Part shown: piece after piece, positions 8,424 through 48,300 of the stretch
Layout of the letters: each line of letters begins with the position of its first letter
Numbering within the stretch: position 1 is the first letter of the stretch
Source: Candidatus Woesearchaeota archaeon
GTDB taxonomy: Archaea > Nanobdellota > Nanobdellia > Woesearchaeales > GW2011-AR4
Assembly (NCBI GenBank): GCA_018303185.1
Contig: JAGVYR010000030.1
Location: 1-54,562, forward strand
Direction: 5' to 3'
Length of the DNA: 54,562 nt
Position numbers and translations under genes: made by a program
The notes under the pieces: generated by a model
The model's input: the letters and a program-made list of their open reading frames with translations, nothing else
What the model was told of the DNA's origin: nothing
Databases searched by the model: none

Positions 8424-8663
8424 ATGGACACGACAACAATAAAGCTTCACGGAAATACCAAAAAGCAGCTGGACAGGTTTAAGGAGTACAAGAACGAAAG
8501 CTATGATGAGGTCATAAACAAGGTAATCTTCATAGCAAACAAGGCAAAGACCAATCCTGAACTCAGCAGGGAGACCGTCATTGCCATAGACAACGCAAGA
8601 AAGAGGATAAAGGCTGGGAATTTTATGACAGAGGAAGAGGCAAGAAAGAGGCTGGGCTTTTAG
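8424..8663 (+). CDS. RHH/CopG-like antitoxin
   Basis: 79 aa. TTIKLHGNTKKQLDRFKEYKNESYDEVINKV is typical of a ribbon-helix-helix N-terminus. It lies immediately upstream of a RelE-family gene. Confidence 0.65.
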   Translation: MDTTTIKLHGNTKKQLDRFKEYKNESYDEVINKVIFIANKAKTNPELSRETVIAIDNARKRIKAGNFMTEEEARKRLGF

Positions 8664-8721
8664 ATGCCATTAAAAATTTCAGTGAAATTTTTTGGACATA
8701 AAGAACCATGGAGACTTTCTA

Positions 8722-8982
8722 ATGTACGAGATAAGATTTGACCCAGAAGCGATTGAATTTCTTCAGAAGCTGCCGAAGGGCATTGCAGAAAGAATCTGGA
8801 ACAAGGTTATGTCCGCAAAGGAAAACCCCCGCCATTTCTTTGAGCGCCTTGCCGGCAGGGCAGACTATAAATTAAGGATTGGAGACTATAGGGCAATTGC
8901 AGACATTGATGATAAAAGCAGGAAGATTGAAGTTACTGTCATAGGCCACAGGAAGAATGTTTACAAGGATTTGCAGCAATAA
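8722..8982 (+). CDS. RelE/ParE-family toxin
   Basis: MYEIRFDPEAIEFLQKLPK...YKLRIGDYRAIADID...IEVTVIGHRKNVY is a RelE/StbE-type pattern. The start was set at the internal ATG. Confidence 0.8.
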   Translation: MYEIRFDPEAIEFLQKLPKGIAERIWNKVMSAKENPRHFFERLAGRADYKLRIGDYRAIADIDDKSRKIEVTVIGHRKNVYKDLQQ

Positions 8983-9022: not shown

Positions 9023-10144
9023 ATGGCAGAAGACATTGAACGGGAATATAATGCAGTAAAGGGCAATGCAGCCCTGTTCGACTTCTCAATGGAAGGCAAG
9101 CTCATTATCAGGGGGGGCAGGAGGATTGATTTTCTTAATGGCATAGTTTCCAATGATGTGAAAAATCTAGGGATAGATGAAGGGGTTTATGCGGCATTTC
9201 CGGATAAGTTCGGCAGGGTTTTGTCAGACTGCCATATCCATAATTTTGGCGATTTTCTATTTGTTAATGTCCCCTTCATTGCGAAAAACAGAATATTGGA
9301 AAAACTGGGGGAAGAAGGGAAGCTGATGAAATGCGATGCCGAGGATGCTACGATGAAGTATGCCCTGCTGTCCATACAGGGGCCCAAGGCTTTGGCATTG
9401 CTTGAGGAAATTTTCAATGAAGAAATAATATTGGAGGAATTGCAATCAGCTGAAAAAACGCTGATGATAAAAAACAATGGGGAAAAAGCGGCAGAAAAAG
9501 AGCAAAAAGCAAATCACAGCAATGAAGAAAAGGACAACGGAGAAACAATAAACAAGGAAAACAATGAAAAAACAAACAATAAGGGAAATAAAGAAACAGC
9601 CAATGAAATAAAAAACATCAAAATAACGATAATCAAAAGAAAAAGAAGCGGCCTTGAAGGGTTTGACCTGCTTTTTGAAGGCAAGCATTACAAAGAAATC
9701 CTTGGAATAATCCTTGAAAAAGGAAAACAATTTGGAATGATAAAATCAAGCAATGAAGTCCATGAAATCCTGAGGCTTGAGGCAGGCATTCCGTTATTCG
9801 GAGTGGATTTTGATGAAAAGACAGTGCTGCCTGAAATTGGCGAGAAGGCGATAAGCTACACCAAAGGCTGCTATACCGGGCAGGAAGTGATTGCGAGGCT
9901 GAAAAACATCGGAAAGGGAAACACGGCAAAGAAGCTTGTAAGGCTGGAAATAGGCTGCAATGAAAAGCTAAGCAAAGGAACAGAGATAAAAAAAGATGAT
10001 AAAAAAATCGGCTACATCACGAGCAGCGCCTATTCCCCTTCTCTGGAGAAAGCTGTTGCGCTGGGGTTTTTGGAAAGAGGTTTTTATGATACCACCGGAG
10101 ATATTAGGGTTAATGAAATAACAGGAAGATTACATTCAACTTAG
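9023..10144 (+). CDS. GcvT/YgfZ-like folate-binding protein with a low-complexity insertion
   Basis: The N-terminus reads AALFDFSMEGKLIIRGGRRIDFLNGIVSNDV. The C-terminus reads SYTKGCYTGQEVIARLKN (the KGCY.GQE motif). A K/N/E-rich insert lies in the middle. Confidence 0.7.
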   Translation: MAEDIEREYNAVKGNAALFDFSMEGKLIIRGGRRIDFLNGIVSNDVKNLGIDEGVYAAFPDKFGRVLSDCHIHNFGDFLFVNVPFIAKNRILEKLGEEGKLMKCDAEDATMKYALLSIQGPKALALLEEIFNEEIILEELQSAEKTLMIKNNGEKAAEKEQKANHSNEEKDNGETINKENNEKTNNKGNKETANEIKNIKITIIKRKRSGLEGFDLLFEGKHYKEILGIILEKGKQFGMIKSSNEVHEILRLEAGIPLFGVDFDEKTVLPEIGEKAISYTKGCYTGQEVIARLKNIGKGNTAKKLVRLEIGCNEKLSKGTEIKKDDKKIGYITSSAYSPSLEKAVALGFLERGFYDTTGDIRVNEITGRLHST

Positions 10145-10217: not shown

Positions 10218-10754
10218 TTAAAGGGCTTTTTTTGGTTTTGATGTTGCAATAGATCCGACAGACTTCTGTGTTTTCATAGCATGCTTTAGCCTCCATTTTG
10301 AACTCAATCCTTTGTCTGCTTCAGCGTGGTGGTTTGGACACAATAGGATTAAGTTAGTAATGCGGTTATTTGAAGGATTTCCATCAATATGGTGAATGTG
10401 TAATCCACGATGAGCGCAAAGCTGGCATTTATCAGCAGCCCTATCATAAACTTTATTTTTTATATTTTCTGGAATAGGAACTCTCTCTTTTTTTGAACTA
10501 TCTGATTTAGCGGCATCAGAAATAAATGCCCAAATCGCATCTACTATAAACAAAAATATATTTTTCTCAGATTCTCGCAATCTTTCATTATTGAAAGACA
10601 TATAAACTAAATATGCTAACCCGGCAATGAACAAAACTAAGAGGGTTATCAACCAGTAGGGATGTTTTTGATAAAACTGGTTGCCAAAGTAGAAGATTAA
10701 AACGAGGAAAATTATGATTCCAAGACCTAAACTCGCTTTGTCTTTTTGCCTCAT
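10218..10754 (-). CDS. membrane-anchored HNH endonuclease
   Basis: Two or three N-terminal TM segments are followed by CQLCAHRG..HIHHIDGNPSNNRITNLILLCPNHH (HNH). The ATG at 10754 has an AAGGAG about 10 nt upstream. The ORF track's GTG at 10763 lies too close to that SD. Confidence 0.7.
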   Translation of the reverse strand: MRQKDKASLGLGIIIFLVLIFYFGNQFYQKHPYWLITLLVLFIAGLAYLVYMSFNNERLRESEKNIFLFIVDAIWAFISDAAKSDSSKKERVPIPENIKNKVYDRAADKCQLCAHRGLHIHHIDGNPSNNRITNLILLCPNHHAEADKGLSSKWRLKHAMKTQKSVGSIATSKPKKAL

Positions 10755-10946
10755 TTTATACACTCCTTCTGGTGAAGGATTTATATAATTTACTATTCAG
10801 ATAATCACATTGGAGTAATGGTAAATAAACAATCGACACTCGTTAAATAACCATAAACTATATAAATAACATATAGCATTACTCTATAATGCAACGGGGG
10901 ATAAATAGCACAGAGTTAATTCTTGTTTTTGCAGGGGTGAGCATCC

Positions 10947-12695: not shown

Positions 12696-13000
12696 GCTAT
12701 TGCGTTCAAAATGAAGGTTGCCATCTGCTTGTGAGCACCAGTTCAAAGCTCATTCAGCCTGACGGGGGAAGTCCCTCATGAAAATCATAGATTTTCAGGA
12801 GTCCCGGAAAGCTAGTCAGAAAGTCTGTTGCTTTCCGATACTTACGGGGTGGCAGGCTTTTGAAAAACTCATCAAGTGCGAACGATGGCAACCGATAGCG
12901 GGTGAAAGCTGCTAACCCGAGATTTGCCTGCGAGAACGCTCGCCTTTGCTGCAAGTTCGAGCAGGCTCGCGTTCAGGTGAAGCGAGATTTCGGACAAAGC
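12696..13000 (-). mobile_element. composite or degenerate copy of the structured MITE-like element (copy A)
   Basis: The right end, GCTTTGTCCGAAATCTCGCTTC when read as the reverse complement, matches the termini of copies B and I. The left end, GTTCAAAATGAAGGTTGCCATC, matches copy G. A long-range stem pairs GGTTGCCATC (12716-12725) with GATGGCAACC (12884-12893). The flanking repeat is imperfect (CTATATGCA versus ATACATGCA). Confidence 0.5.
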
Positions 13001-13033: not shown

Positions 13034-13465
13034 ATGATTGTCAATATAGGCATTGAAAAATTACTCCTTCAGTTACTGAGCATAGCAGGCTTTCTTATAT
13101 CCCTGTATTTTGCATTCGTTTACCATGGGCTTGCAAGGGCCTCTGAGAAACTGATTCCGGCAAATGTCTGCTCAGCTAAAACATGCCATTCAGTGCTTGA
13201 GACAAAGTTTGCCAAAGCCTTTAAGATTCCTAATTTCTATCTCGGGCTTGTTTATTATTATATTGTGTTTGTCTCAACCTTTTATAACCCTGAAGGAATG
13301 ATATTATGGGGATTCCTCATTGTGAGCTGGCTTGCTGTGCTGTTTTCAGCATATCTTTTTTATGCACTTGTGTTTAAGCTGAAGACAAGGTGCAACCTGT
13401 GTTTTGCGGCGCAGATGATAAATTTGGGTATTGGAATGATGTTGGTACTGGGGTTTTATGGCTAA
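13034..13465 (+). CDS. VKOR-family (vitamin K epoxide reductase-like) membrane protein
   Basis: It has 4 TM segments. Loop cysteines occur in CSAKTCHSVLETKFAKAFKIPNFYLG, and a CNLC (CxxC) motif lies in the last TM region. Confidence 0.7.
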   Translation: MIVNIGIEKLLLQLLSIAGFLISLYFAFVYHGLARASEKLIPANVCSAKTCHSVLETKFAKAFKIPNFYLGLVYYYIVFVSTFYNPEGMILWGFLIVSWLAVLFSAYLFYALVFKLKTRCNLCFAAQMINLGIGMMLVLGFYG

Positions 13466-15541: not shown

Positions 15542-17268
15542 ACTACAAGATAAAGAAAATCTTTACAAGCGTAAGGGGGATAATACTCCTTGTTGCATTA
15601 TTGCTTTCTGTGGTTGCAATAAGCCCAATGCCTTTCAATGACGGGGTTGCGATAAGGAATGTCATAACAAACAGCTCGGCATCCATTGCAGGCATACCGC
15701 AGCCCTCGCCGACAGAAAGGCCTGTCAGCAGGGAGAGGATAACTGCAGTCAATAATGCCCCTATAGAAAGCGTGGAAGAGTACTACAATGCTGTCCAAAA
15801 TCTGCGGATAAACCAAAGCATACAGATAAAGACCAATGAAAGGCTTTACAGGCTTACTGTAAAAGAAGCTTTTGAAACAATCCAGCTCAATGAGACAGAA
15901 TTGCGTTCAGTGGAAGAAGTAATCACAGTCAATAGGACAATAAACGGAACTTTAACAGAGGTAAATGAAACAACTTCCAAAGTTGTGCGGGTTCCAAAGA
16001 CAATAAGGGTAAGCAAAGGGCCGCAGGATATCGGACTGAGGGTTTCTGATGCTGCCACCACAAACCTGAGGAAAGGGCTTGACCTTCAGGGCGGAACAAG
16101 AGTCTTGCTGCAGCCGGAAAAGCCACTGAATCCTTTTGACCTTGCAACTCTTATGGACAACATGCAGGAAAGGCTCAATGTATACGGGCTTACTGACCTT
16201 GTCATAAGGGATTCCAAGGACCTTGAAGGCAACCAGTACATTCTTGTAGAAATTGCAGGGGCAAATGAAGATGAGATAAGAAATCTGCTTGAAAAAGAAG
16301 GCAAGTTTGAGGCAAAGATAGGCAACAGCACAGTTTTCACAGGAGGCAAGGACATAACTTTCGTATGCAGAAGCCCCGAGTGCGCAGGCATAGACCCCAA
16401 TATCGGCTGCGGGCAGTCAGGAGGGCAGTGGGCATGCACTTTCAGTTTCTCAATAACTTTGAGCACACAGGCGGCCCAGAGGCAGGCTGACGCGACAAGA
16501 GACCTTGCTATAGTTCCCTCTGAAAACAGCAGGGAAGGCTACTTAAGCCAGCCTCTTGAATTGATACTTGATGACAGGAAAGTAGATGAGCTAAGGATAG
16601 CATCTTCATTAAAGGGAGAGGCGGCAACCAACATCCAGATTTCGGGCTCAGGGATAGGGGCAAGCAATCAGGAAGCCATCTACAATGCCCTTGGGAACAT
16701 GAAAAGGCTCCAGACAGTGCTTGTGACAGGCTCACTGCCTGTAAAAATGAGCATAGTCAAGATAGATTCGATAAGCCCTGTTTTGGGTGTAGGGTTTGTG
16801 AAGAACGCGCTTCTTGTGGGATTTTTGGCATTGCTTGCAGTCCTTATTGTCGTCTATATAAGATACAGGAAGCTATACATAGCGCTTCCGATGTTCGCCA
16901 TCTCCCTGTCTGAGCTGGTCATGCTTCTTGGAGTTGCAGCATTAATAGGGTGGAACCTCGATGTCGCGGCAATCGCCGGAATAATAGTTGCTATAGGAAC
17001 AGGAGTTGACCATCAGATTGTCATTACGGATGAAACGCTTAAAGGGGAAGCTGCAAGGTCATATAACTGGAAAGAGAAGCTGAAAGGGGCTTTCTCAATT
17101 ATCATGGGCTCTTATTTCACCTTGTTTGTTGCTATGGTACCTTTGATATTTGCGGGCGCAGGGCTTCTGAAAGGCTTTGCAATAACCTCTTTGATAGGCG
17201 CAAGCATAGGCGTGTTTATCTCAAGGCCAGTCTATGCGAAAATGATTGAAATCGTCCTGAAGGAATAA
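15538..17268 (+). CDS. secD: protein-export membrane protein SecD
   Basis: The periplasmic head contains GLDLQGGTRVLLQ. The C-terminal TM bundle contains GTGVDHQIVITDE. It is translationally coupled to secF. Confidence 0.85.
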   Translation: MNYKIKKIFTSVRGIILLVALLLSVVAISPMPFNDGVAIRNVITNSSASIAGIPQPSPTERPVSRERITAVNNAPIESVEEYYNAVQNLRINQSIQIKTNERLYRLTVKEAFETIQLNETELRSVEEVITVNRTINGTLTEVNETTSKVVRVPKTIRVSKGPQDIGLRVSDAATTNLRKGLDLQGGTRVLLQPEKPLNPFDLATLMDNMQERLNVYGLTDLVIRDSKDLEGNQYILVEIAGANEDEIRNLLEKEGKFEAKIGNSTVFTGGKDITFVCRSPECAGIDPNIGCGQSGGQWACTFSFSITLSTQAAQRQADATRDLAIVPSENSREGYLSQPLELILDDRKVDELRIASSLKGEAATNIQISGSGIGASNQEAIYNALGNMKRLQTVLVTGSLPVKMSIVKIDSISPVLGVGFVKNALLVGFLALLAVLIVVYIRYRKLYIALPMFAISLSELVMLLGVAALIGWNLDVAAIAGIIVAIGTGVDHQIVITDETLKGEAARSYNWKEKLKGAFSIIMGSYFTLFVAMVPLIFAGAGLLKGFAITSLIGASIGVFISRPVYAKMIEIVLKE

Positions 17269-22223: not shown

Positions 22224-22268
22224 GGGGAAAATGCGGGAAAGGGAGTTTATAAAGTTTATTGGAAAAAC

Positions 22269-22488
22269 GGCTCTGTCCGAAATCTCGCTTTGCTTGGGTT
22301 AGCGGCTTTCGCCCAACTGGTTACGCCCGGTTGACAGGCAATATGGGGCATGAAGCCCCATGCCGCAGCCTTCACATCGCATGATGGCTGCGGCGTATGG
22401 CTGTAAGCCATACATGTTTTGGTCAACTTTTGCTGGAAATCTAAAATGGGCTCATCTGATGCCGCTAACCTACATTTCGGACAGAGCC
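22269..22488 (+). mobile_element. structured MITE-like element, archetypal copy B (220 nt)
   Basis: It has perfect 15-bp termini, GGCTCTGTCCGAAAT (22269-22283) and ATTTCGGACAGAGCC (22474-22488). These are directly flanked by the 9-bp direct repeat TGGAAAAAC (22260-22268 and 22489-22497). The second stem pairs GGTTAGCGGC with GCCGCTAACC. Three perfect internal hairpins are present. Confidence 0.7.
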
Positions 22489-22499
22489 TGGAAAAACAG

Positions 22500-32160: not shown

Positions 32161-33621
32161 TTAAGGGAAGTATACTTCCGTCTCCGGGTGGAATGCGGCC
32201 CATGCAAACCAAAACAGCGTCTCGACCGCTATATCACTTCCTTCTGATGCTTTAGCTTTGGCACTCTTTAAAGTATTATTAAAATCTACAATGATTTTTT
32301 CTCCACCTAATGAATCCTCAACTGTTCCAACACGCTCCAAATCGCTTTTTTTGTATGCCTTAAATTTCCCATTAAGCTCTATCCCGTAAACTATTTCGTA
32401 AGCATCAAGCCTGAAATCCTCATTCTGCAGCCTGAACCTGAGGTTTATATCGGTAAAATCTCCATCCCTGCCATAGGGATTGCTGCCGCTGTAATCCCTG
32501 GATGGAAAACCGGTGTCCTTTGAAAGTACTTCACTATCAGGATATGCCTTTTTCCAATCACCCCACTTTACGGTGTCTGTGGGGAGCTTTTTCAGCTTTG
32601 TCCCGGTCAAAGGGCCTATAACTGCCTTTCCGAGCGTTTGCGGCCAATAAGAATCTGTTTTCCTGTCGTACATGACAAGCTCCGAGTTTAATAATTTTCC
32701 GGAAACGCCGAATTCAACCGCTTCTCCGCCTATTTCCCTGTGAAATGCCAGTCCGGTGAAGCACAGCGGGCAGTAAGATACCAATATGGGGTCTCCCAGT
32801 ATATTGTCATTTACAATCTCATGGCTTACCAGAATCCTGAAGGGGTAGAACCTTTTCTCGCCCCTGTAAACTATGCCCAGGCCAAGCTCATCGTCAGGGA
32901 GCCACTTGCCTGCATTTTCCACTTCAATAAACTTTGGATTATCTATCGAAGGTATGCCGTCTTTTGGAACTCCGCCAGAGAGAAGCTCATCCGGATGAAT
33001 GATATACCTTGTTCCATCCTGCAGAGTTTTTATTTCGTCCGCCACACTCAAACCTATTCCTTTATCCCTATTATCTTCCAATAATTTGCCAAGTTTTTCC
33101 CCAATCTCTTCATCCGTAAGCGGGCCGAATTTTTTGCCTTTAATTCTGCCATCCACCCCTATGAAATAAGTTACCGGCTGAGTAAACACATTATACGCTT
33201 CCCTTGCGCTTTTATCAGGGTCAAGCAATATGGGGTAAGATACCTGAATTTCACCAATGGACTTCCTTACAGCTTCAGGGCTTTCCTGCAAGTTTATTCC
33301 TATTATCTCCAAATTCCCCTTATTTTCCCTGTAGATTTTCTCAAATGCCGGCATCTCCTGCCTGCACGGCGGGCACCATGATGCCCAGAAGTTGAGTATA
33401 ACCGCCTTATTGCCGCGGAATGAGCTCAACTGCACTTTTTCCCCGTTCAAGGAGTTAAGAATGAAATCCGGCGGTAGGTCTCCAATGCCGAGGCCTGTGC
33501 CATGCCCTTTTATAACAGCTGAGTTTTTGTCCTTTTGGAAATAATTTTCTAATACTGGCAAGGCGGCCATTAGTATAATTGTAATAAGCAAAATCAGGAT
33601 AACTTTTTGATTATTCTCCAT
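32161..33621 (-). CDS. membrane-anchored TlpA-like thioredoxin fused to a DUF3179 domain
   Basis: An N-terminal TM segment is followed by ILNFWASWCPPCRQEMP (a Trx CxxC). The C-terminal half contains DGIPSIDNPKF...VSYCPLC, which is typical of DUF3179. Confidence 0.7.
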   Translation of the reverse strand: MENNQKVILILLITIILMAALPVLENYFQKDKNSAVIKGHGTGLGIGDLPPDFILNSLNGEKVQLSSFRGNKAVILNFWASWCPPCRQEMPAFEKIYRENKGNLEIIGINLQESPEAVRKSIGEIQVSYPILLDPDKSAREAYNVFTQPVTYFIGVDGRIKGKKFGPLTDEEIGEKLGKLLEDNRDKGIGLSVADEIKTLQDGTRYIIHPDELLSGGVPKDGIPSIDNPKFIEVENAGKWLPDDELGLGIVYRGEKRFYPFRILVSHEIVNDNILGDPILVSYCPLCFTGLAFHREIGGEAVEFGVSGKLLNSELVMYDRKTDSYWPQTLGKAVIGPLTGTKLKKLPTDTVKWGDWKKAYPDSEVLSKDTGFPSRDYSGSNPYGRDGDFTDINLRFRLQNEDFRLDAYEIVYGIELNGKFKAYKKSDLERVGTVEDSLGGEKIIVDFNNTLKSAKAKASEGSDIAVETLFWFAWAAFHPETEVYFP

Positions 33622-33726
33622 TACAAAAACATTAATGCACCTGTGCTTGATTAATATTTGGTTTAATAAACAACTTATACTTATATACTTTAAGCCAGAG
33701 TTTTCGAAAATGAATTGGGCAATCCA

Positions 33727-33885
33727 TTAAAATTTCACAGCATTTTTTGTAATATCAATATTGCAGCTATTATGGCTCCTGCACCACGCCTCACATCTTT
33801 CCGCCAGTTCTTTCGTTTCATACGCAAAGCCGCATTCCTGACAAATGGAGCAGGTTTTGCCTTTTCTTGTTATCTCATTTGCCAT
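33727..33885 (-). CDS. candidate 52-aa Cys-rich (zinc-ribbon-like) protein
   Basis: It is not in the ORF track. Hand translation gives MANEITRKGKTCSICQECGFAYETKELAERCEAWCRSHNSCNIDITKNAVKF, with 7 Cys including CxxCxxC. It lies between two thioredoxin genes on the same strand. Confidence 0.45.
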   Translation of the reverse strand: MANEITRKGKTCSICQECGFAYETKELAERCEAWCRSHNSCNIDITKNAVKF

Positions 33886-33914
33886 TTTATAGCCGTTATA
33901 AAAATTAAAGATTA

Positions 33915-35111
33915 CTATCCAAAAGTAAACGTATACAGCTTGAACCTTTTCCCTTTCGCCACTATCTCAATCCTGTGCTTCCCGTACTCATAGTCAGCAA
34001 GATTGTAGAGCCTTTCCTCATTGACTTTTGCAATTCCGCTGGTGCCGATATCGCCACCTTTTGTGCTTTCATCCGCTTTTTTCCCGTCAATAAAGACCTC
34101 TATCTCTGCCTCGCTGTCAGAGCCGGCAACGATATTCAGGACTTTGGCATCATAATTCAGGATAAGCCTTGCCCCTTCCTCTTCGGACTCAATGTTGTCT
34201 GCATTAACTTTCCATTTTCCTTCAAGATAGATGTAGTTGTCAAGCATTTTTTCAGGAAGAGTGTAATCAACTATCCTGTTGGCAGGCAGCCCTTCCTCAT
34301 TTCCAAAATTGCCCCTGGTAAAATCATAGCCAAGGTAAAGCTCGGGAGTGCCTATATTTCCGGTAATGGAAACAGCATCTTCCGGCCTGCTTATCTCCAT
34401 GCTAATATCCTGCTCCATGCCCATCCTTTCTGCTCTTTCCTGCAGAAGCTCCTGAATCTTCATTTCTGTCTCGGCATACGCCCCCTCGCCAATATGGTCA
34501 TACCTTACAAAGCCGTCAATGTCAATAAGATACTTGCGGGGCCAGAACCTGTTGTTGTAGGCGCGCCATGTTGAATAGGAGTTGTCCTGCACAATGGGAT
34601 ATTGAAGCCGGTATTTTTCGGCTGCCTGCTTCACGTTATTGTAGTCTTTCTCAAACTCGAATTCAGGAGTGTGCACCCCAATAATGACAAGCCCCTTGTC
34701 CTTATACTTATCATGCCATTCCTTAATGTACGGGAGAGTGCGGATGCAGTTTATGCATGTGTATGTCCAAAAGTCTACCAAAACAACTTTGCCTTTCTGG
34801 TTTGCTATGCTTATGCTGTCATCGGTGTTTATGTAGCCTGCAATTCCCCTTAATTCAGGAGCCTGCTGGAAATTTGCTGATTTCGAGGCAATGGCTTTCT
34901 CATCCGGGATGTAATCTGAAATTCTTTCCTGAACCTGCGCTTGATTTGAGCCTGAAGATTCTGAATTTTCCGCAGGAATATCGCTTTCTATTGAATTTTC
35001 ATCCAAGATATCCACTTCTGAAGGCACTGAAACCTTTTGGGACTCAAAATAGTAAATCAGCGAGGCTATTGCCGTCAATACAATTATCAATGCAAATGCC
35101 CTGTTTTTCAC
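33915..35111 (-). CDS. TlpA-like thioredoxin with a DipZ-type C-terminal domain
   Basis: It contains VLVDFWTYTCINCIRTLP (CxxC) and PELYLGY...YLEGKWKV, as in the C-terminal part of actinobacterial DipZ. The GTG start lies 1 nt after the ccdA stop, with AGGAGG upstream. Confidence 0.7.
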   Translation of the reverse strand: MKNRAFALIIVLTAIASLIYYFESQKVSVPSEVDILDENSIESDIPAENSESSGSNQAQVQERISDYIPDEKAIASKSANFQQAPELRGIAGYINTDDSISIANQKGKVVLVDFWTYTCINCIRTLPYIKEWHDKYKDKGLVIIGVHTPEFEFEKDYNNVKQAAEKYRLQYPIVQDNSYSTWRAYNNRFWPRKYLIDIDGFVRYDHIGEGAYAETEMKIQELLQERAERMGMEQDISMEISRPEDAVSITGNIGTPELYLGYDFTRGNFGNEEGLPANRIVDYTLPEKMLDNYIYLEGKWKVNADNIESEEEGARLILNYDAKVLNIVAGSDSEAEIEVFIDGKKADESTKGGDIGTSGIAKVNEERLYNLADYEYGKHRIEIVAKGKRFKLYTFTFG

Positions 35112-40666: not shown

Positions 40667-40860
40667 GGCTCCAGTGAAAATCTCACTTCGTTCGGCCAGT
40701 GCCTGCTCGCCTTTATGAGTTTTTCTCAGGCATGCCACCCCGCAACTGGTTACACCCGGTTGACATGTAACGAAAATCGAAGATTTTCGGAACGTCCGGA
40801 AACCTTCGGTTTCCGATACGCAAGATGGAGCTTACAGCTCCATGCCGTGGCTATAAGAAG
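40667..40860 (+). mobile_element. degenerate or partial copy of the MITE-like element (copy F)
   Basis: It starts GGCTCCAGTGAAAATCTCACTTCGTTCGG (terminus plus loop motif). It shares CAACTGGTTACACCCGGTTGACA with copy B and TGAGTTTTTC..GCCACCCCG with copy A. Several perfect hairpins are present. I found no matching right terminus or target-site duplication. Confidence 0.4.
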
Positions 40861-40932
40861 AGATATTTAAACTTTTTTACAGCAAATTAAGAAATATTGC
40901 GGAAAGATTAAAAATGGCTGCGAATTCAGCAA

Positions 40933-41097
40933 AGGTCGGTGCGAAATGAAGGTTGCCATCATCAGGGCGAGGCTCTTTAATTGGCAGATTAAAAGAGTTG
41001 AAGGGGACGCTCCCTACGGGACTTCAACGATACTTTCAGAGAGACATCAAAGCCGAGCAGATGGCAACCCGAAGAATGAGATTTCGCACCGACATAG
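40933..41097 (-). mobile_element. structured MITE-like element, copy G (165 nt)
   Basis: Its termini, AGGTCGGTGCGAAAT and ATTTCGCACCGAC, are directly flanked by the 9-bp direct repeat ATTCAGCAA (40924-40932 and 41098-41106). The inner stem pairs GGTTGCCATC with GATGGCAACC. Confidence 0.7.
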
Positions 41098-41118
41098 ATT
41101 CAGCAACAAAGGGGGAAA

Positions 41119-41547
41119 ATGGACCAGCTTGACAATAGTATAATACAGATTCTAAGAAAGAATGGAAGGGCATCTTTCCAGGAGATGGCAAAGCTTCTAA
41201 ATGCACCTGAAAGCACCATAAGAAGCCGTGTCAAAGGCTTGGAAAGCAAAGGAGCTATAAGGGGATATTCCGCTGTTGTAGACCCTTCAAAGCTCGGATT
41301 TGGCAGTGTTGCAATGGTCGGCATAGACACAGCACCTGAAAGGTTTCTGGAAATTGCAAACATGCTTACAGAATTTGAGAGTGTAAAATCTGTCTCAACA
41401 TGCTCAGGAGACCATATGATAATGACTGAAATCTGGATGGAGAATGCCTCCCAGCTAAGGGATTTTATCAGGAATAAAGTGGAGAAGATTGACGGGGTTA
41501 CAAGGACATGCCCTGCGATAGTGATGGAAAGATTGAAGGAAGCTTGA
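41119..41547 (+). CDS. Lrp/AsnC-family transcriptional regulator
   Basis: It contains LDNSIIQILRKNGRASFQEMAKLLNAPESTIRSRVKGLESKGAIRGY plus a C-terminal RAM-like domain. Confidence 0.85.
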   Translation: MDQLDNSIIQILRKNGRASFQEMAKLLNAPESTIRSRVKGLESKGAIRGYSAVVDPSKLGFGSVAMVGIDTAPERFLEIANMLTEFESVKSVSTCSGDHMIMTEIWMENASQLRDFIRNKVEKIDGVTRTCPAIVMERLKEA

Positions 41548-41783: not shown

Positions 41784-41987
41784 ATGAGCGACACAATAAC
41801 TATACCCAAATCGGAATACAAGAAGCTAAAGGAATCTGTAACAATATCAAAAGCAGAATATGAGGAGATGCTTGAAACTATTGAAATTTTAAGCGACAGG
41901 GGCATTCTGAAAGATATCAGTGATTCCAAGAAGCAGTTTGAAGAAGGCAAATTTACGACTTTAAGCAATCTCAAAAATGAAATTTGA
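41784..41987 (+). CDS. antitoxin (Phd/YefM/RelB-like)
   Basis: 67 aa with EEMLETIEILSD. It overlaps the downstream RelE-family gene by 11 nt. Confidence 0.6.
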   Translation: MSDTITIPKSEYKKLKESVTISKAEYEEMLETIEILSDRGILKDISDSKKQFEEGKFTTLSNLKNEI

Positions 41988-42246
41988 GGTTGTCGTTCCT
42001 GATAAAATAAAGAAGAGAATTCTGAAGCTCGAGAAAGCTGACAGGGAAAGAATTTTTGAGAAACTTGACGAATTGTCCCCTAATTATGAGTTGGGCAAGC
42101 ACCTTTCTTCCATAAACCTATGGAGCTTAAGGGCAGGGGACTACAGGATTCTTTACCAAGCTGATAAAGGCAGAATAAAGATATTTGTCTTCCATTTCGG
42201 AGGCAGGAAGAATGTTTACGATATCCTGAAAAAGCTTTCCAGGTAA
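41977..42246 (+). CDS. RelE/ParE-family toxin
   Basis: It contains LWSLRAGDYRILYQADKGRIKIFVFHFGGRKNVY and is a paralogue of 8722-8982. Confidence 0.8.
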   Translation: MKFEVVVPDKIKKRILKLEKADRERIFEKLDELSPNYELGKHLSSINLWSLRAGDYRILYQADKGRIKIFVFHFGGRKNVYDILKKLSR

Positions 42247-45082: not shown

Positions 45083-45127
45083 ATTCTTATTAACTTCCTT
45101 TTGCTTTAAATTTTTATTGCTTTTTCA

Positions 45128-45328
45128 GGCTTTGTCCCAAGACTCGCTGCGCTCGGTTTAGTGGCAATCTCACTTCGTTCGTAGGTTTTACTTCGTAAAA
45201 CCTTCAAAGTCTTAGCTTATTCAGGCTCTTACTGACCTTTCCCGGATGGAGCGTCCCCTTTGTCAGCTTATCTGGAAATATGAAAGAGACTTTGACCTTA
45301 TGCCACTAAACTTTTCTTGGACAAAGCC
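45128..45328 (+). mobile_element. structured MITE-like element, copy I (201 nt)
   Basis: Its termini are GGCTTTGTCCCAAG and CTTGGACAAAGCC. They are directly flanked by the 9-bp direct repeat GCTTTTTCA (45119-45127 and 45329-45337). The second stem pairs GTTTAGTGGCA with TGCCACTAAAC. An inner hairpin reads AGGTTTTAC-TTC-GTAAAACCT. Confidence 0.7.
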
Positions 45329-45334
45329 GCTTTT

Positions 45335-46105
45335 TCATTCAGCCTTATTGTAAATCCCGTACAGATTGTAAGATCCTATGAAAAACATCATGCCACTGAG
45401 AATCTGTCCCATCGTGAGCCAGCCGAAATAAAAGCCAAGCTGCGCGTCAGGAGCGCGGTAAAACTCGACAATGAAGCGGAGGAATCCGTAAAGCGCCACG
45501 AAAGCCCAGAACAGAAAGCCGCGAGGAAGCTTTAGTTTTCTTATATTCCATAATACTGTGAAACTCAATAAATTCTTTAATGAAGCGTATATCTGGGAAG
45601 GGTGGCGGAAGCCTTCAGCTCCCCGAAACTTGACTGCCCATGGCACATTAGTAATGCGGCCATACAGCTCGCCATTGGCAAAATTTCCCAATCTTCCGAG
45701 GGCAAGGCCAAGCGCAAGCGGAATTACAGTGATGTCGGCCATGTCGTAGAAATGCAATCTCTTTCTTTTCGTGAAGATAATACCGCCGATAACAGCGCCC
45801 ACAAGCCCGCCGTGGAAAGAGAGGCCGCCGTGCCAAACTGCGAAAATGTCGAGAGGGTTTGCGGCGTAGAAAGGAAGATTGTATATCAAAATGTAGAAAA
45901 CCCTTGCGCCAAGGATTGCCCCAATCAGAATATGAAGCAAGTAATCGGAGATATCATCCTTTGAAAGCTTCAATCCCTTTTCCTTCGAAAGCTTGATGAG
46001 CATGAAATACGCAATCACAAAGCCAAGAGCCCAGAACATGCCATAATACCTTACCTCCAGAGGCCCGAGCCTCAGAAGCACAGGGTCTATGGATGAAGTG
46101 AACAT
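45335..46105 (-). CDS. lgt: prolipoprotein diacylglyceryl transferase (bacterial type)
   Basis: It contains RYYGMFWALGF, HGGLSFHGGLVGAVIG, LGRLGNFANGELYG and RHPSQIYASL, which together form the Lgt signature set. Confidence 0.85.
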   Translation of the reverse strand: MFTSSIDPVLLRLGPLEVRYYGMFWALGFVIAYFMLIKLSKEKGLKLSKDDISDYLLHILIGAILGARVFYILIYNLPFYAANPLDIFAVWHGGLSFHGGLVGAVIGGIIFTKRKRLHFYDMADITVIPLALGLALGRLGNFANGELYGRITNVPWAVKFRGAEGFRHPSQIYASLKNLLSFTVLWNIRKLKLPRGFLFWAFVALYGFLRFIVEFYRAPDAQLGFYFGWLTMGQILSGMMFFIGSYNLYGIYNKAE

Positions 46106-47538: not shown

Positions 47539-48300
47539 TTAGTTTGCAAGCTCAGCCTCAATTACCTGCTGGAAATTCTGGAACGGATGAGCTCCTATCA
47601 ATGGTATCCCATTTATCAAAAAGCCCGGTGTTCCGCTTATTCCTGCTTGTGAGCCCTGGCTGAAATCTTCCTGTATCTCTGCCCTGTATTTTCCTGTTTC
47701 TACACAGCTGTTGAACTTGTCCATGTCAAGGCCAAGCTTCTGCGCAATTTCAGTGTATAGTGCTGCACCCATTCTGCCCTGGTTCTGGTAAATCTGGTCG
47801 TGGAATTCCCAGAACTTGCCCTGCTCATGGGCGCATTCTGCGGCTTCTGCAGCCGGCTGCGCCTCAGGGTGGAAGCTCAACGGGAAGTCTTTGTAGACCA
47901 TCTTTACTTTTCCAGTTTTTATATATTTCTCTTCAATCTGCCCAAGAGTATCCTGATAAAATCGGCCGCAGTAAGGGCACTGGAAATCTGCAAATTCCAC
48001 AATTGTTACAGGAGCATCTGCATCGCCCTTTACAGGGTCGCCTTCAAGGCTTACCTGCTGCCTCTGAGGCTCGCCCTGCGGCTCCTGCTGTGTCGGCTGC
48101 GGCGCAGCTGCCTGCTGCTGGCCTCCGCCTGTATTTGCGCCGACGCTTGGACCGCCTGAACCTGTGAACCACATGACAACAATTATTATCGCTAAAACTG
48201 CAGATACAATCTGCCAAAGAGTCTCTTTCTTAATTGTGTAAGCCTCTTTCTTTGGCTCGTGCATGTGATGCACATGCGGCTTGTCTTCTTTTTCATCCAT
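47539..48300 (-). CDS. membrane-anchored DsbA-like thiol:disulfide oxidoreductase
   Basis: An N-terminal TM segment and a Q/P-rich linker are followed by VTIVEFADFQCPYCGRF and GTPGFLING. Confidence 0.8.
   Translation of the reverse strand: MDEKEDKPHVHHMHEPKKEAYTIKKETLWQIVSAVLAIIIVVMWFTGSGGPSVGANTGGGQQQAAAPQPTQQEPQGEPQRQQVSLEGDPVKGDADAPVTIVEFADFQCPYCGRFYQDTLGQIEEKYIKTGKVKMVYKDFPLSFHPEAQPAAEAAECAHEQGKFWEFHDQIYQNQGRMGAALYTEIAQKLGLDMDKFNSCVETGKYRAEIQEDFSQGSQAGISGTPGFLINGIPLIGAHPFQNFQQVIEAELAN

Follow-up and report, generated by a model that had tools for sequence, protein, structure and literature searches.

A hairpin-rich family of probable miniature inverted-repeat transposable elements in a Woesearchaeota archaeon

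The window analysed here is the whole 54,562-nt stretch of Candidatus Woesearchaeota contig JAGVYR010000030.1 (assembly GCA_018303185.1), from an uncultured archaeon in groundwater. It contains a family of short palindromic elements, and the flanking genes include those for the archaeal proteins Nop5 and fibrillarin, as well as for CutA1, an ABC1 kinase, CTP synthase, VKOR, LGT, FTR1 and a regulator of the AsnC family. Proteins homologous to ABC1 carry the name Candidatus Woesearchaeota, and the nearest is only 67% identical. Between the CutA1 and ABC1 genes lies the element examined most closely, copy A (22269-22488, 220 bp), which we interpret as a probable MITE (miniature inverted-repeat transposable element). 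We call the strand on which the short linker comes first the sense strand; in copy A this is the minus strand of the window, the same strand as CutA1 and ABC1.

Copy A is bounded by a 15-bp terminal inverted repeat. One arm, GGCTCTGTCCGAAAT (22269-22283), resembles the termini of IS903-group insertion sequences (ISs), and the other, ATTTCGGACAGAGCC (22474-22488), is complementary to it at 15 of 15 positions. The 9-mer TGGAAAAAC abuts both arms without a mismatch (22260-22268 and 22489-22497), as a target-site duplication. Further in, GGTTAGCGGC (22297-22306) and GCCGCTAACC (22461-22470) form a subterminal inverted repeat, P2, that is a perfect 10-bp stem. A three-hairpin module occupies 22343-22413, and its hairpins at 22343-22361 (loop ATGAA), 22362-22394 and 22395-22413 (loop TGTAA) are all perfect. 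A preliminary description of this DNA had listed the termini, the 9-mers, the second stem and the three hairpins, all of which we recovered. It also placed a 13-nt loop on the 5' side only. The long linker CTCGCTTTGCTTG (22284-22296) is indeed found at one end only, but 3 nt (TAC, 22471-22473) stand opposite, and the arrangement is asymmetric rather than one-sided.

The fold of copy A is far beyond chance on either strand, with z scores against shuffled sequences of -9.3 and -9.4 as RNA (the two strands) and -9.0 as DNA. The whole window was scanned for inverted termini, matching at 11 or more of 14 positions, with exact 9-bp direct repeats immediately outside them. Only copy A and the element at 45128-45328 were returned; 100 first-order Markov resamplings gave nine cases, or 0.09 expected per window. 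Copy A had been presented as the archetypal copy, a status it loses because the same locus in other assemblies (L001, L002, L043) carries a 256-bp version with 36 more internal bases, which reveals an internal deletion in the window. The lost bases lay between short A-runs. This deletion (22330-22336 region, deletion point near 22426/22427) is either a real strain variant or an assembly collapse at repeats.

Four further copies lie in the window. Copy B (40933-41097, plus strand, 165 bp) has the IS5-like termini GTCGGTGCGAAAT/ATTTCGCACCGAC, lies ~21 nt upstream of the plus-strand gene for the AsnC-family regulator, and is flanked by a perfect 9-bp duplication, ATTCAGCAA (40924-40932 and 41098-41106). 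Copy C (45128-45328, minus strand, 201 bp), with termini GGCTTTGTCC.../...GGACAAAGCC, sits between two minus-strand genes, LGT and a 143-aa open reading frame (ORF), and is likewise flanked by a perfect 9-bp duplication, GCTTTTTCA (45119-45127 and 45329-45337). Copy D (12696-13000, plus strand, 305 bp) lies between the plus-strand CTP synthase and VKOR genes and is degenerate, with mismatched termini and no clean duplication. It combines a B-type P2 with an A-like terminus and has an expanded long linker with extra hairpins. The architecture of copy A had been said to recur at these three sites; this holds for B and C, while D is related but degenerate. The earlier list was also incomplete, in that it missed a fifth, truncated copy, F (40667-40854, minus strand), upstream of the minus-strand FTR1 gene and revealed by BLAST between copies. 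A complete 335-bp copy F is present in the same population (L083/L084, 5354-5688), and the window version is without ~195 bp that include one end and some flank. The deletion, at 40854/40855, may again be a real strain variant or an assembly collapse at repeats. Five copies (A, B, C, D and F) in 54.6 kb correspond to ~92 per Mb.

Looking beyond the window, as the preliminary description had proposed, yielded three more members. Copy H, from the same population, lies in L085 and has an expanded long linker like that of copy D. Copy E16 (L016, 874-1085) belongs to another Woesearchaeota metagenome-assembled genome. A Plass-assembled peptide from SRR3989338 (P0121), found via the open frame across copy A, represents one more copy, known only as a spurious ORF with no DNA on record; the open frame of copy B, used as a query in the same way, found no further copies. 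E16 and P0121 are the only two copies found outside this population. Some contigs of the population disagree at the elements: L085 (144-534) fuses the first ~65 nt of F, on the sense strand, to H, and in L043 (reverse strand, about 915-1170) copy A has another right flank. Both junctions could come from copies recombining with each other or from chimeras made in assembly at repeats. Several short contigs (L086-L092) begin inside copy F.

Wider searches added few real copies. An exact-pattern scan for GCGAGATTTCGGACANAGC gave 16 matches in the genome collection, about the chance number, of which only L016 is real, and 40 in the metagenome collection, where only L041 (copy D) and L043 (copy A) are real. 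Four viral-contig scans returned only chance matches or unrelated phage genes. Neither the window nor ~0.4 Mb of related DNA yielded additional copies in profile searches with both ends. Scanned with end profiles, the ABC1 neighbourhoods of the closest relatives (L076-L078 and L080-L082, ABC1 63-67% identical) and the window extensions (L134-L145) contained no other family member and no IS5-type transposase.

Taken over all copies, the elements are 165-391 bp long and intergenic. Their ends combine a ~15-bp terminal inverted repeat with a 9-11-bp subterminal inverted repeat, with an unequal spacer between the two (3-5 nt on one side of the element, 11-15 nt on the other), and enclose a variable interior rich in short perfect palindromes. 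The long linker begins CTC(G/A)(C/T) in every copy, in agreement with the conserved loop motif CTC(G/A)CT.. noted previously. The termini pair at 15/15 positions in A and at 13/13 in B; copy C has 14 pairs and one bulge, and copy F 13 Watson-Crick plus two G-T pairs. The target-site duplication is exactly 9 bp in A, B and C, with a different sequence in each of the three. No clean duplication is seen in D, F or H, which look decayed or recombinant. Six-frame translations revealed no reading frame common to the copies, and a protein-coding interpretation was rejected for want of a consistent frame. The conserved end GAAATGAAGGTTGCC sets an ATG 13 nt inside the element (M-K-V-A..., at 40946-41143 and 12711-12734), with which the spurious peptide P0121 also starts. 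This ATG may be what is left of a parent transposase's start codon.

A relative provides a candidate empty site, which the preliminary description had suggested seeking. In L078, whose ABC1 is 66% identical, gene order is kept and the CutA1-ABC1 spacer is 44 nt long with no element. The spacer reads ...CCAACAATAAATTTATAAATAACCTTTC..., and the window flanks, once the element and one duplicate are removed, read ...TTTCCAATAAACTTTATAAACTCCCTTTCC...; the two share a TATA-like motif, although L078 is a distant relative and the likeness was judged by eye. In another relative, L076 (ABC1 67% identical), the CutA1-ABC1 spacer is A+T-rich except for a G+C-rich palindrome, TAGGCGCGGCCAATGGTGCCG...CGGCCCGCCATTGGGGCCGCCTA (9850-9920), in the same intergenic position as copy A in the window. 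It is possibly an unrelated small palindromic element.

Because the termini match, the duplication has a fixed length, the copies are several and diverged, and they have no reading frame in common, we assign the family to the MITEs. The earlier designation as a non-autonomous transposable element thus stands, strengthened by 9-bp duplications in three copies, by the additional copies and by the empty orthologous site. The ends, GGCT(C/T)TGT... or GGTCGGTGCGAA..., together with the fixed 9-bp duplication, match the IS903 group of the IS5 family. IS903, which we verified, is 1057 bp long with GGCTTTGTTGAATAAATC at both ends. Copy C starts GGCTTTGTCCAAGAAAAG, identical to IS903 over the first 8 nt (GGCTTTGT) and at 13 of 18 positions overall. 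The start of copy A is GGCTCTGT, and A, F, E16 and H all begin GGCTCTG. Copy B begins GGTCGGTGCGAA, and its GGTCGGTGCGAAAT agrees with the verified IS5 end GGAAGGTGCGAATA at 10 of 14 positions. ISAba12-type ISs and MITEAba12 have GGCTTTGTTGC... ends and 9-bp duplications, and 9-bp duplications are generated by most IS903-group ISs in the same study (PMC6382973) and by all IS5/IS903-group ISs tabulated elsewhere (PMC3281130).

Given the end sequence and the duplication length, mobilisation in trans by an IS5-family (IS903-type) transposase is most likely; we infer both the identity of the transposase and its action in trans from these sequence features. Overall, we consider it quite likely that copy A and its relatives form a gene-less MITE family with IS5/IS903-type ends, moved in trans by a DDE transposase, and that their fold is mainly DNA symmetry. 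A DDE transposase of the IS903-group type, encoded elsewhere, would bind the two matching ends, excise or copy the element, and join it to a target whose strands have been cut 9 bp apart; repair of this stagger would leave the 9-bp duplication. The multi-hairpin fold would then stem mainly from symmetry at the DNA level, as both ends need the same binding sites. Internal palindromes could be kept perfect by hairpin-templated correction or owe their perfection to recent origin, and a selected RNA structure would be unnecessary. After insertion, copies would decay by deletion and recombine with each other.

So, is the fold that of an RNA or of DNA? The preliminary description held that the stems differ between copies and remain complementary, and both the terminal stem (P1) and P2 do so: across A, B/D, C, E16 and F, P2 occurs in five sequence versions, every one perfect. 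It went on to argue that these compensatory changes show a selected RNA or single-stranded DNA fold, a step that the data do not support as argued. In a small sample of 6-7 copies, the named helices hold 187 Watson-Crick pairs, two G-T pairs and one mismatch. In natural RNA helices that have diverged this far, wobble pairs are normally frequent on the strand that is transcribed. The G-T share in long minimum-free-energy helices is 5.6% on the sense and 6.3% on the antisense strand, compared with 12% in shuffles, and the two strands fold to an equally extreme degree, whether as RNA or as DNA. Strand-specific G-U evidence for RNA was considered and rejected, as individual cases cancel and overall counts are symmetric. 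Two pairs in the F termini and the G-T pairs closing GGGG..TCCC hairpins point to the sense strand; a CAACTGG/CCGGTTG hairpin and a P2 variant in L043 point to the antisense strand.

The three-hairpin module adds a structural argument. The flanks of A and F are colinear (A 79-111 = F 74-106; A 189-211 = F 237-259), and the module between them (22343-22413 in the window) is inverted in F (L083/L084, 5512-5582); therefore no single RNA strand is conserved. Once the modules are read in the same direction, both show TTACA and TTCAT unchanged as 5-nt loops. Of the stem pairs, 4/7, 2/9 (with a further pair lost) and 1/7 are different, every change being compensated. The inversion breakpoints coincide with the module edges, both next to ...CAT, and not with the enclosing TTGAC/GTCAA repeat; the inverted module could be a nested mini-element or the product of a hairpin-mediated flip. 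A second conserved feature, the motif GGGG(A/T)CGCTCC(C/A)T(A/C)CGGGA, is conserved in B, C and H, where the stems around it are unrelated in sequence (GTTGAAG/CTTCAAC, CTGAC/GTCAG and GCGTT/AACGC). Variants in the population delete such structure: 36 bp including the core motif in A, and ~195 bp, a whole end, in F. Rfam searches of the whole window gave no match at gathering thresholds and none on any copy at E ≤ 5, and the element region at E ≤ 10 gave chance-level matches only (E 0.1-5, far below gathering). A kink-turn was rejected as an explanation for the asymmetric linker, which by eye does not fit the consensus.

The covariation is real, yet it provides no evidence for a selected RNA, and the fold is best read as DNA palindromy. 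Two transposon ends must co-vary because one transposase binds both, and hairpin-templated correction of quasi-palindromes is a known mutational process. Matched transposase sites at the ends, or such correction, predict the perfect, strand-symmetric complementarity observed, and from this we infer why the stems have stayed complementary. Selection at the RNA level is unlikely, though still conceivable.

Several observations weigh against a MITE family whose fold is mainly DNA symmetry. Neither an autonomous IS with such ends nor a transposase of the IS5 family turned up in the window, the ~0.4 Mb of related DNA or the genome, metagenome and viral pattern scans. A tblastn search with the IS903 transposase across the loci analysed here gave only noise at E > 4. 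The window itself had been said to have no transposase gene, and this is borne out by tblastn and by Pfam scans of 30 ORFs combined with precomputed Pfam annotation of genes on overlapping contigs, which covered most of the window (~35.1-39.8 and 54.0-54.4 kb partly). Within the population, the three loci did not vary in whether they contain an element: each assembly has the copy. P2 has remained perfect in D and E16 in spite of their decayed termini. Internal hairpins, which are not transposase sites, also keep their complementarity, with loops conserved while 4/7 stem pairs changed on both sides. Finally, all five window copies share one orientation, in which the short-linker-first strand is also the one that codes for the neighbouring gene or genes. 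The orientation of copy H fits too, and the chance of this is about 1/16 to 1/32 (two-sided). Neither the shared orientation nor the complementarity of the internal hairpins and P2 is predicted by a purely selfish DNA element.

These last features raise the alternative that the elements are MITEs with a co-opted fold, co-transcribed with their neighbours, in which RNA structure or a discrete processed RNA is selected, perhaps as a stabiliser, processing site or regulatory module, in the way suggested for the bacterial ERIC and Correia elements. Besides the perfect P2 of copies with decayed termini, co-option would account for the compensated changes in the internal hairpins under identical loops (TTACA and TTCAT, with 4/7 and 1/7 stem pairs different) and for the persistence of the core motif inside different stems in B, C and H. 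It would also suit the location of copy B between a TATA-like sequence and the start codon of the regulator gene, a position that probably makes it part of the 5' untranslated region of that gene. The uniform sense orientation is accompanied by a bias in T runs: the sense strands of this genome's six copies have no run of five or more T, whereas the antisense strands have four. Oligo-T tracts terminate archaeal transcription, and selection against the terminating orientation would simply explain the orientation bias, in what is a small sample. Several of the results given above tell against co-option, however. G-T pairs make up ~1% of the named helices and are equally frequent on both strands, the inverted module makes the same RNA impossible from both A and F, deletions in strain variants take out the core motif of A (36 bp) or one entire end of F (~195 bp), Rfam has no match, and the module is known in only two independent instances. 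We therefore hold co-option of the fold to be unlikely, if still worth serious consideration.

A broader version of this idea takes the modular hairpin family as domesticated cis-acting RNA or DNA modules, with helices under selection for structure and copies retained only in the transcription-compatible orientation. The conserved loops in covarying stems, the ~19-nt core in variable stems and the flippable three-hairpin module are what suggest it. We judge domestication on this scale to be distinctly unlikely.

Another possibility concerns the parent rather than the fold: that these are MITEs of another family with 8-9-bp duplications and GG-initial ends, such as IS1 or IS256. IS1 ends follow the rule GGnnnTG (ISfinder family descriptions), which fits A, C and E16, all of which begin GGCT(C/T)TG. 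Both families occur in archaea, and the failure of tblastn with the IS903 transposase to find an IS5-family transposase in any locus searched leaves room for them. Duplications made by IS256 are mostly 8 bp, however, and the three intact duplications here measure exactly 9 bp, a length shared by all the IS903-group members tabulated (PMC3281130). Copy C starts with the same 8 nt as IS903 and the ISAba12 group, and copy B matches the IS5 end at 10 of 14 positions. An IS1- or IS256-type parent is thus very doubtful.

The idea that a single-strand (HUH) transposase, IS91-like or of the IS200/IS605 type, recognises the hairpins, so that the fold matters as single-stranded DNA, finds some encouragement in the DNA-like perfect palindromes and in IS91-family Y2 transposase fragments (Pfam Y2_Tnp and Zn_Tnp_IS91) beyond the window start in one assembly, but such elements have neither terminal inverted repeats nor target duplications, and with three copies showing matched termini and exact 9-bp duplications we give it next to no credence. 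Palindromic elements derived from IS200/IS605 (PATE/REP) and IS91-type elements were rejected on the same grounds. The fragments themselves are two adjacent ORFs (L144, 4683-5464) that form a split IS91-family rolling-circle transposase in the same population, with a mechanism unrelated to 9-bp duplications.

Among described systems, the IS5/IS903-type MITE family proposed here is closest to MITEAba12 and the other MITEs of IS903-group ISs (ISAba12, ISEcl7, ISNov2; IS903). Like these, it is small and non-coding, has ~15-16-bp termini starting GGCTTTGT, makes an exact 9-bp duplication, is present in multiple copies at intergenic AT-rich targets, and has no transposase of its own (PMC6382973). 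Its host, however, is a DPANN archaeon and not a proteobacterium. The elements are 165-391 bp long with ~50% G+C, as against 113 bp and 78% A+T for MITEAba12, and they differ from that group in their second subterminal inverted repeat, unequal end spacers and modular interior of perfect hairpins. The copies are also highly diverged, and no co-resident parent IS was identified.

The ERIC/IRU elements of enterobacteria and the Correia/NEMIS elements of Neisseria are similar in being imperfect palindromes that lie between genes and, once co-transcribed, adopt long stem-loop folds. For ERIC/IRU and Correia, orientation relative to the flanking gene matters for the effect on mRNA. Unlike the Woesearchaeota family, whose pairing has no RNA-strand signature, ERIC and Correia have documented transcription and RNase processing, and their duplications have other lengths (TA in Correia). 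MITE transcripts are known to form stable structures (PMC10969869). The archaeal MITEs of Sulfolobus, Halobacterium and Haloquadratum, and those of a "Woesearchaea" genome, are, like the present family, intergenic, non-autonomous IS derivatives. The Woesearchaea genome comes from a 2024 census, which counted 105 MITEs per Mb in it (PMC11602168) and gives no anatomy for its elements; the window has five copies in 54.6 kb.

MITEs were already known in archaea, and what is new here is a family with an unusually modular, hairpin-rich interior. It documents MITE anatomy in the Woesearchaeota, a small-genome symbiotic lineage whose transposable elements are barely described, and links the family, through its end sequence and the length of its duplications, to the transposition chemistry of IS5/IS903. 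Metagenome assemblies break at the copies, where conflicting junctions between assemblies are also found (L043, L085), a point that matters for binning and finishing these genomes. The family is also a cautionary case: "compensatory" stem changes in a transposon are not in themselves evidence for a functional RNA. Should the orientation bias and loop conservation hold genome-wide, it would offer a tractable case of MITE domestication in archaea.

The surroundings of the elements hold several further features. Two small gene pairs (8424-8982 and 41784-42246) have ParE-toxin-like members according to precomputed Pfam annotation (L140 and L083) and are probable toxin-antitoxin modules. A 181-aa ORF with an HNH_3 endonuclease domain (10218-10763, minus strand) adjoins the CTP synthase gene and is possibly a free-standing homing-type endonuclease. 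Thiol-redox and lipoprotein genes are found at 45335-46105 (minus), 13034-13465 (plus), 47539-48300 (minus) and 32161-35111 (minus). They encode an LGT-type prolipoprotein diacylglyceryl transferase, an enzyme that is probably uncommon in archaea, VKOR, a DsbA-like protein and several proteins of thioredoxin/peroxiredoxin fold, a set that suggests an extracytoplasmic thiol-redox and lipoprotein toolkit. No tRNA or transfer-messenger RNA gene was found in the window. Beyond the window end, a 645-nt spacer in L134 contains a tRNA-gene-like sequence with an intron (GCGAGGGG...GGGTTCGAGTCCCACCTCTCGC, 15750-15875).

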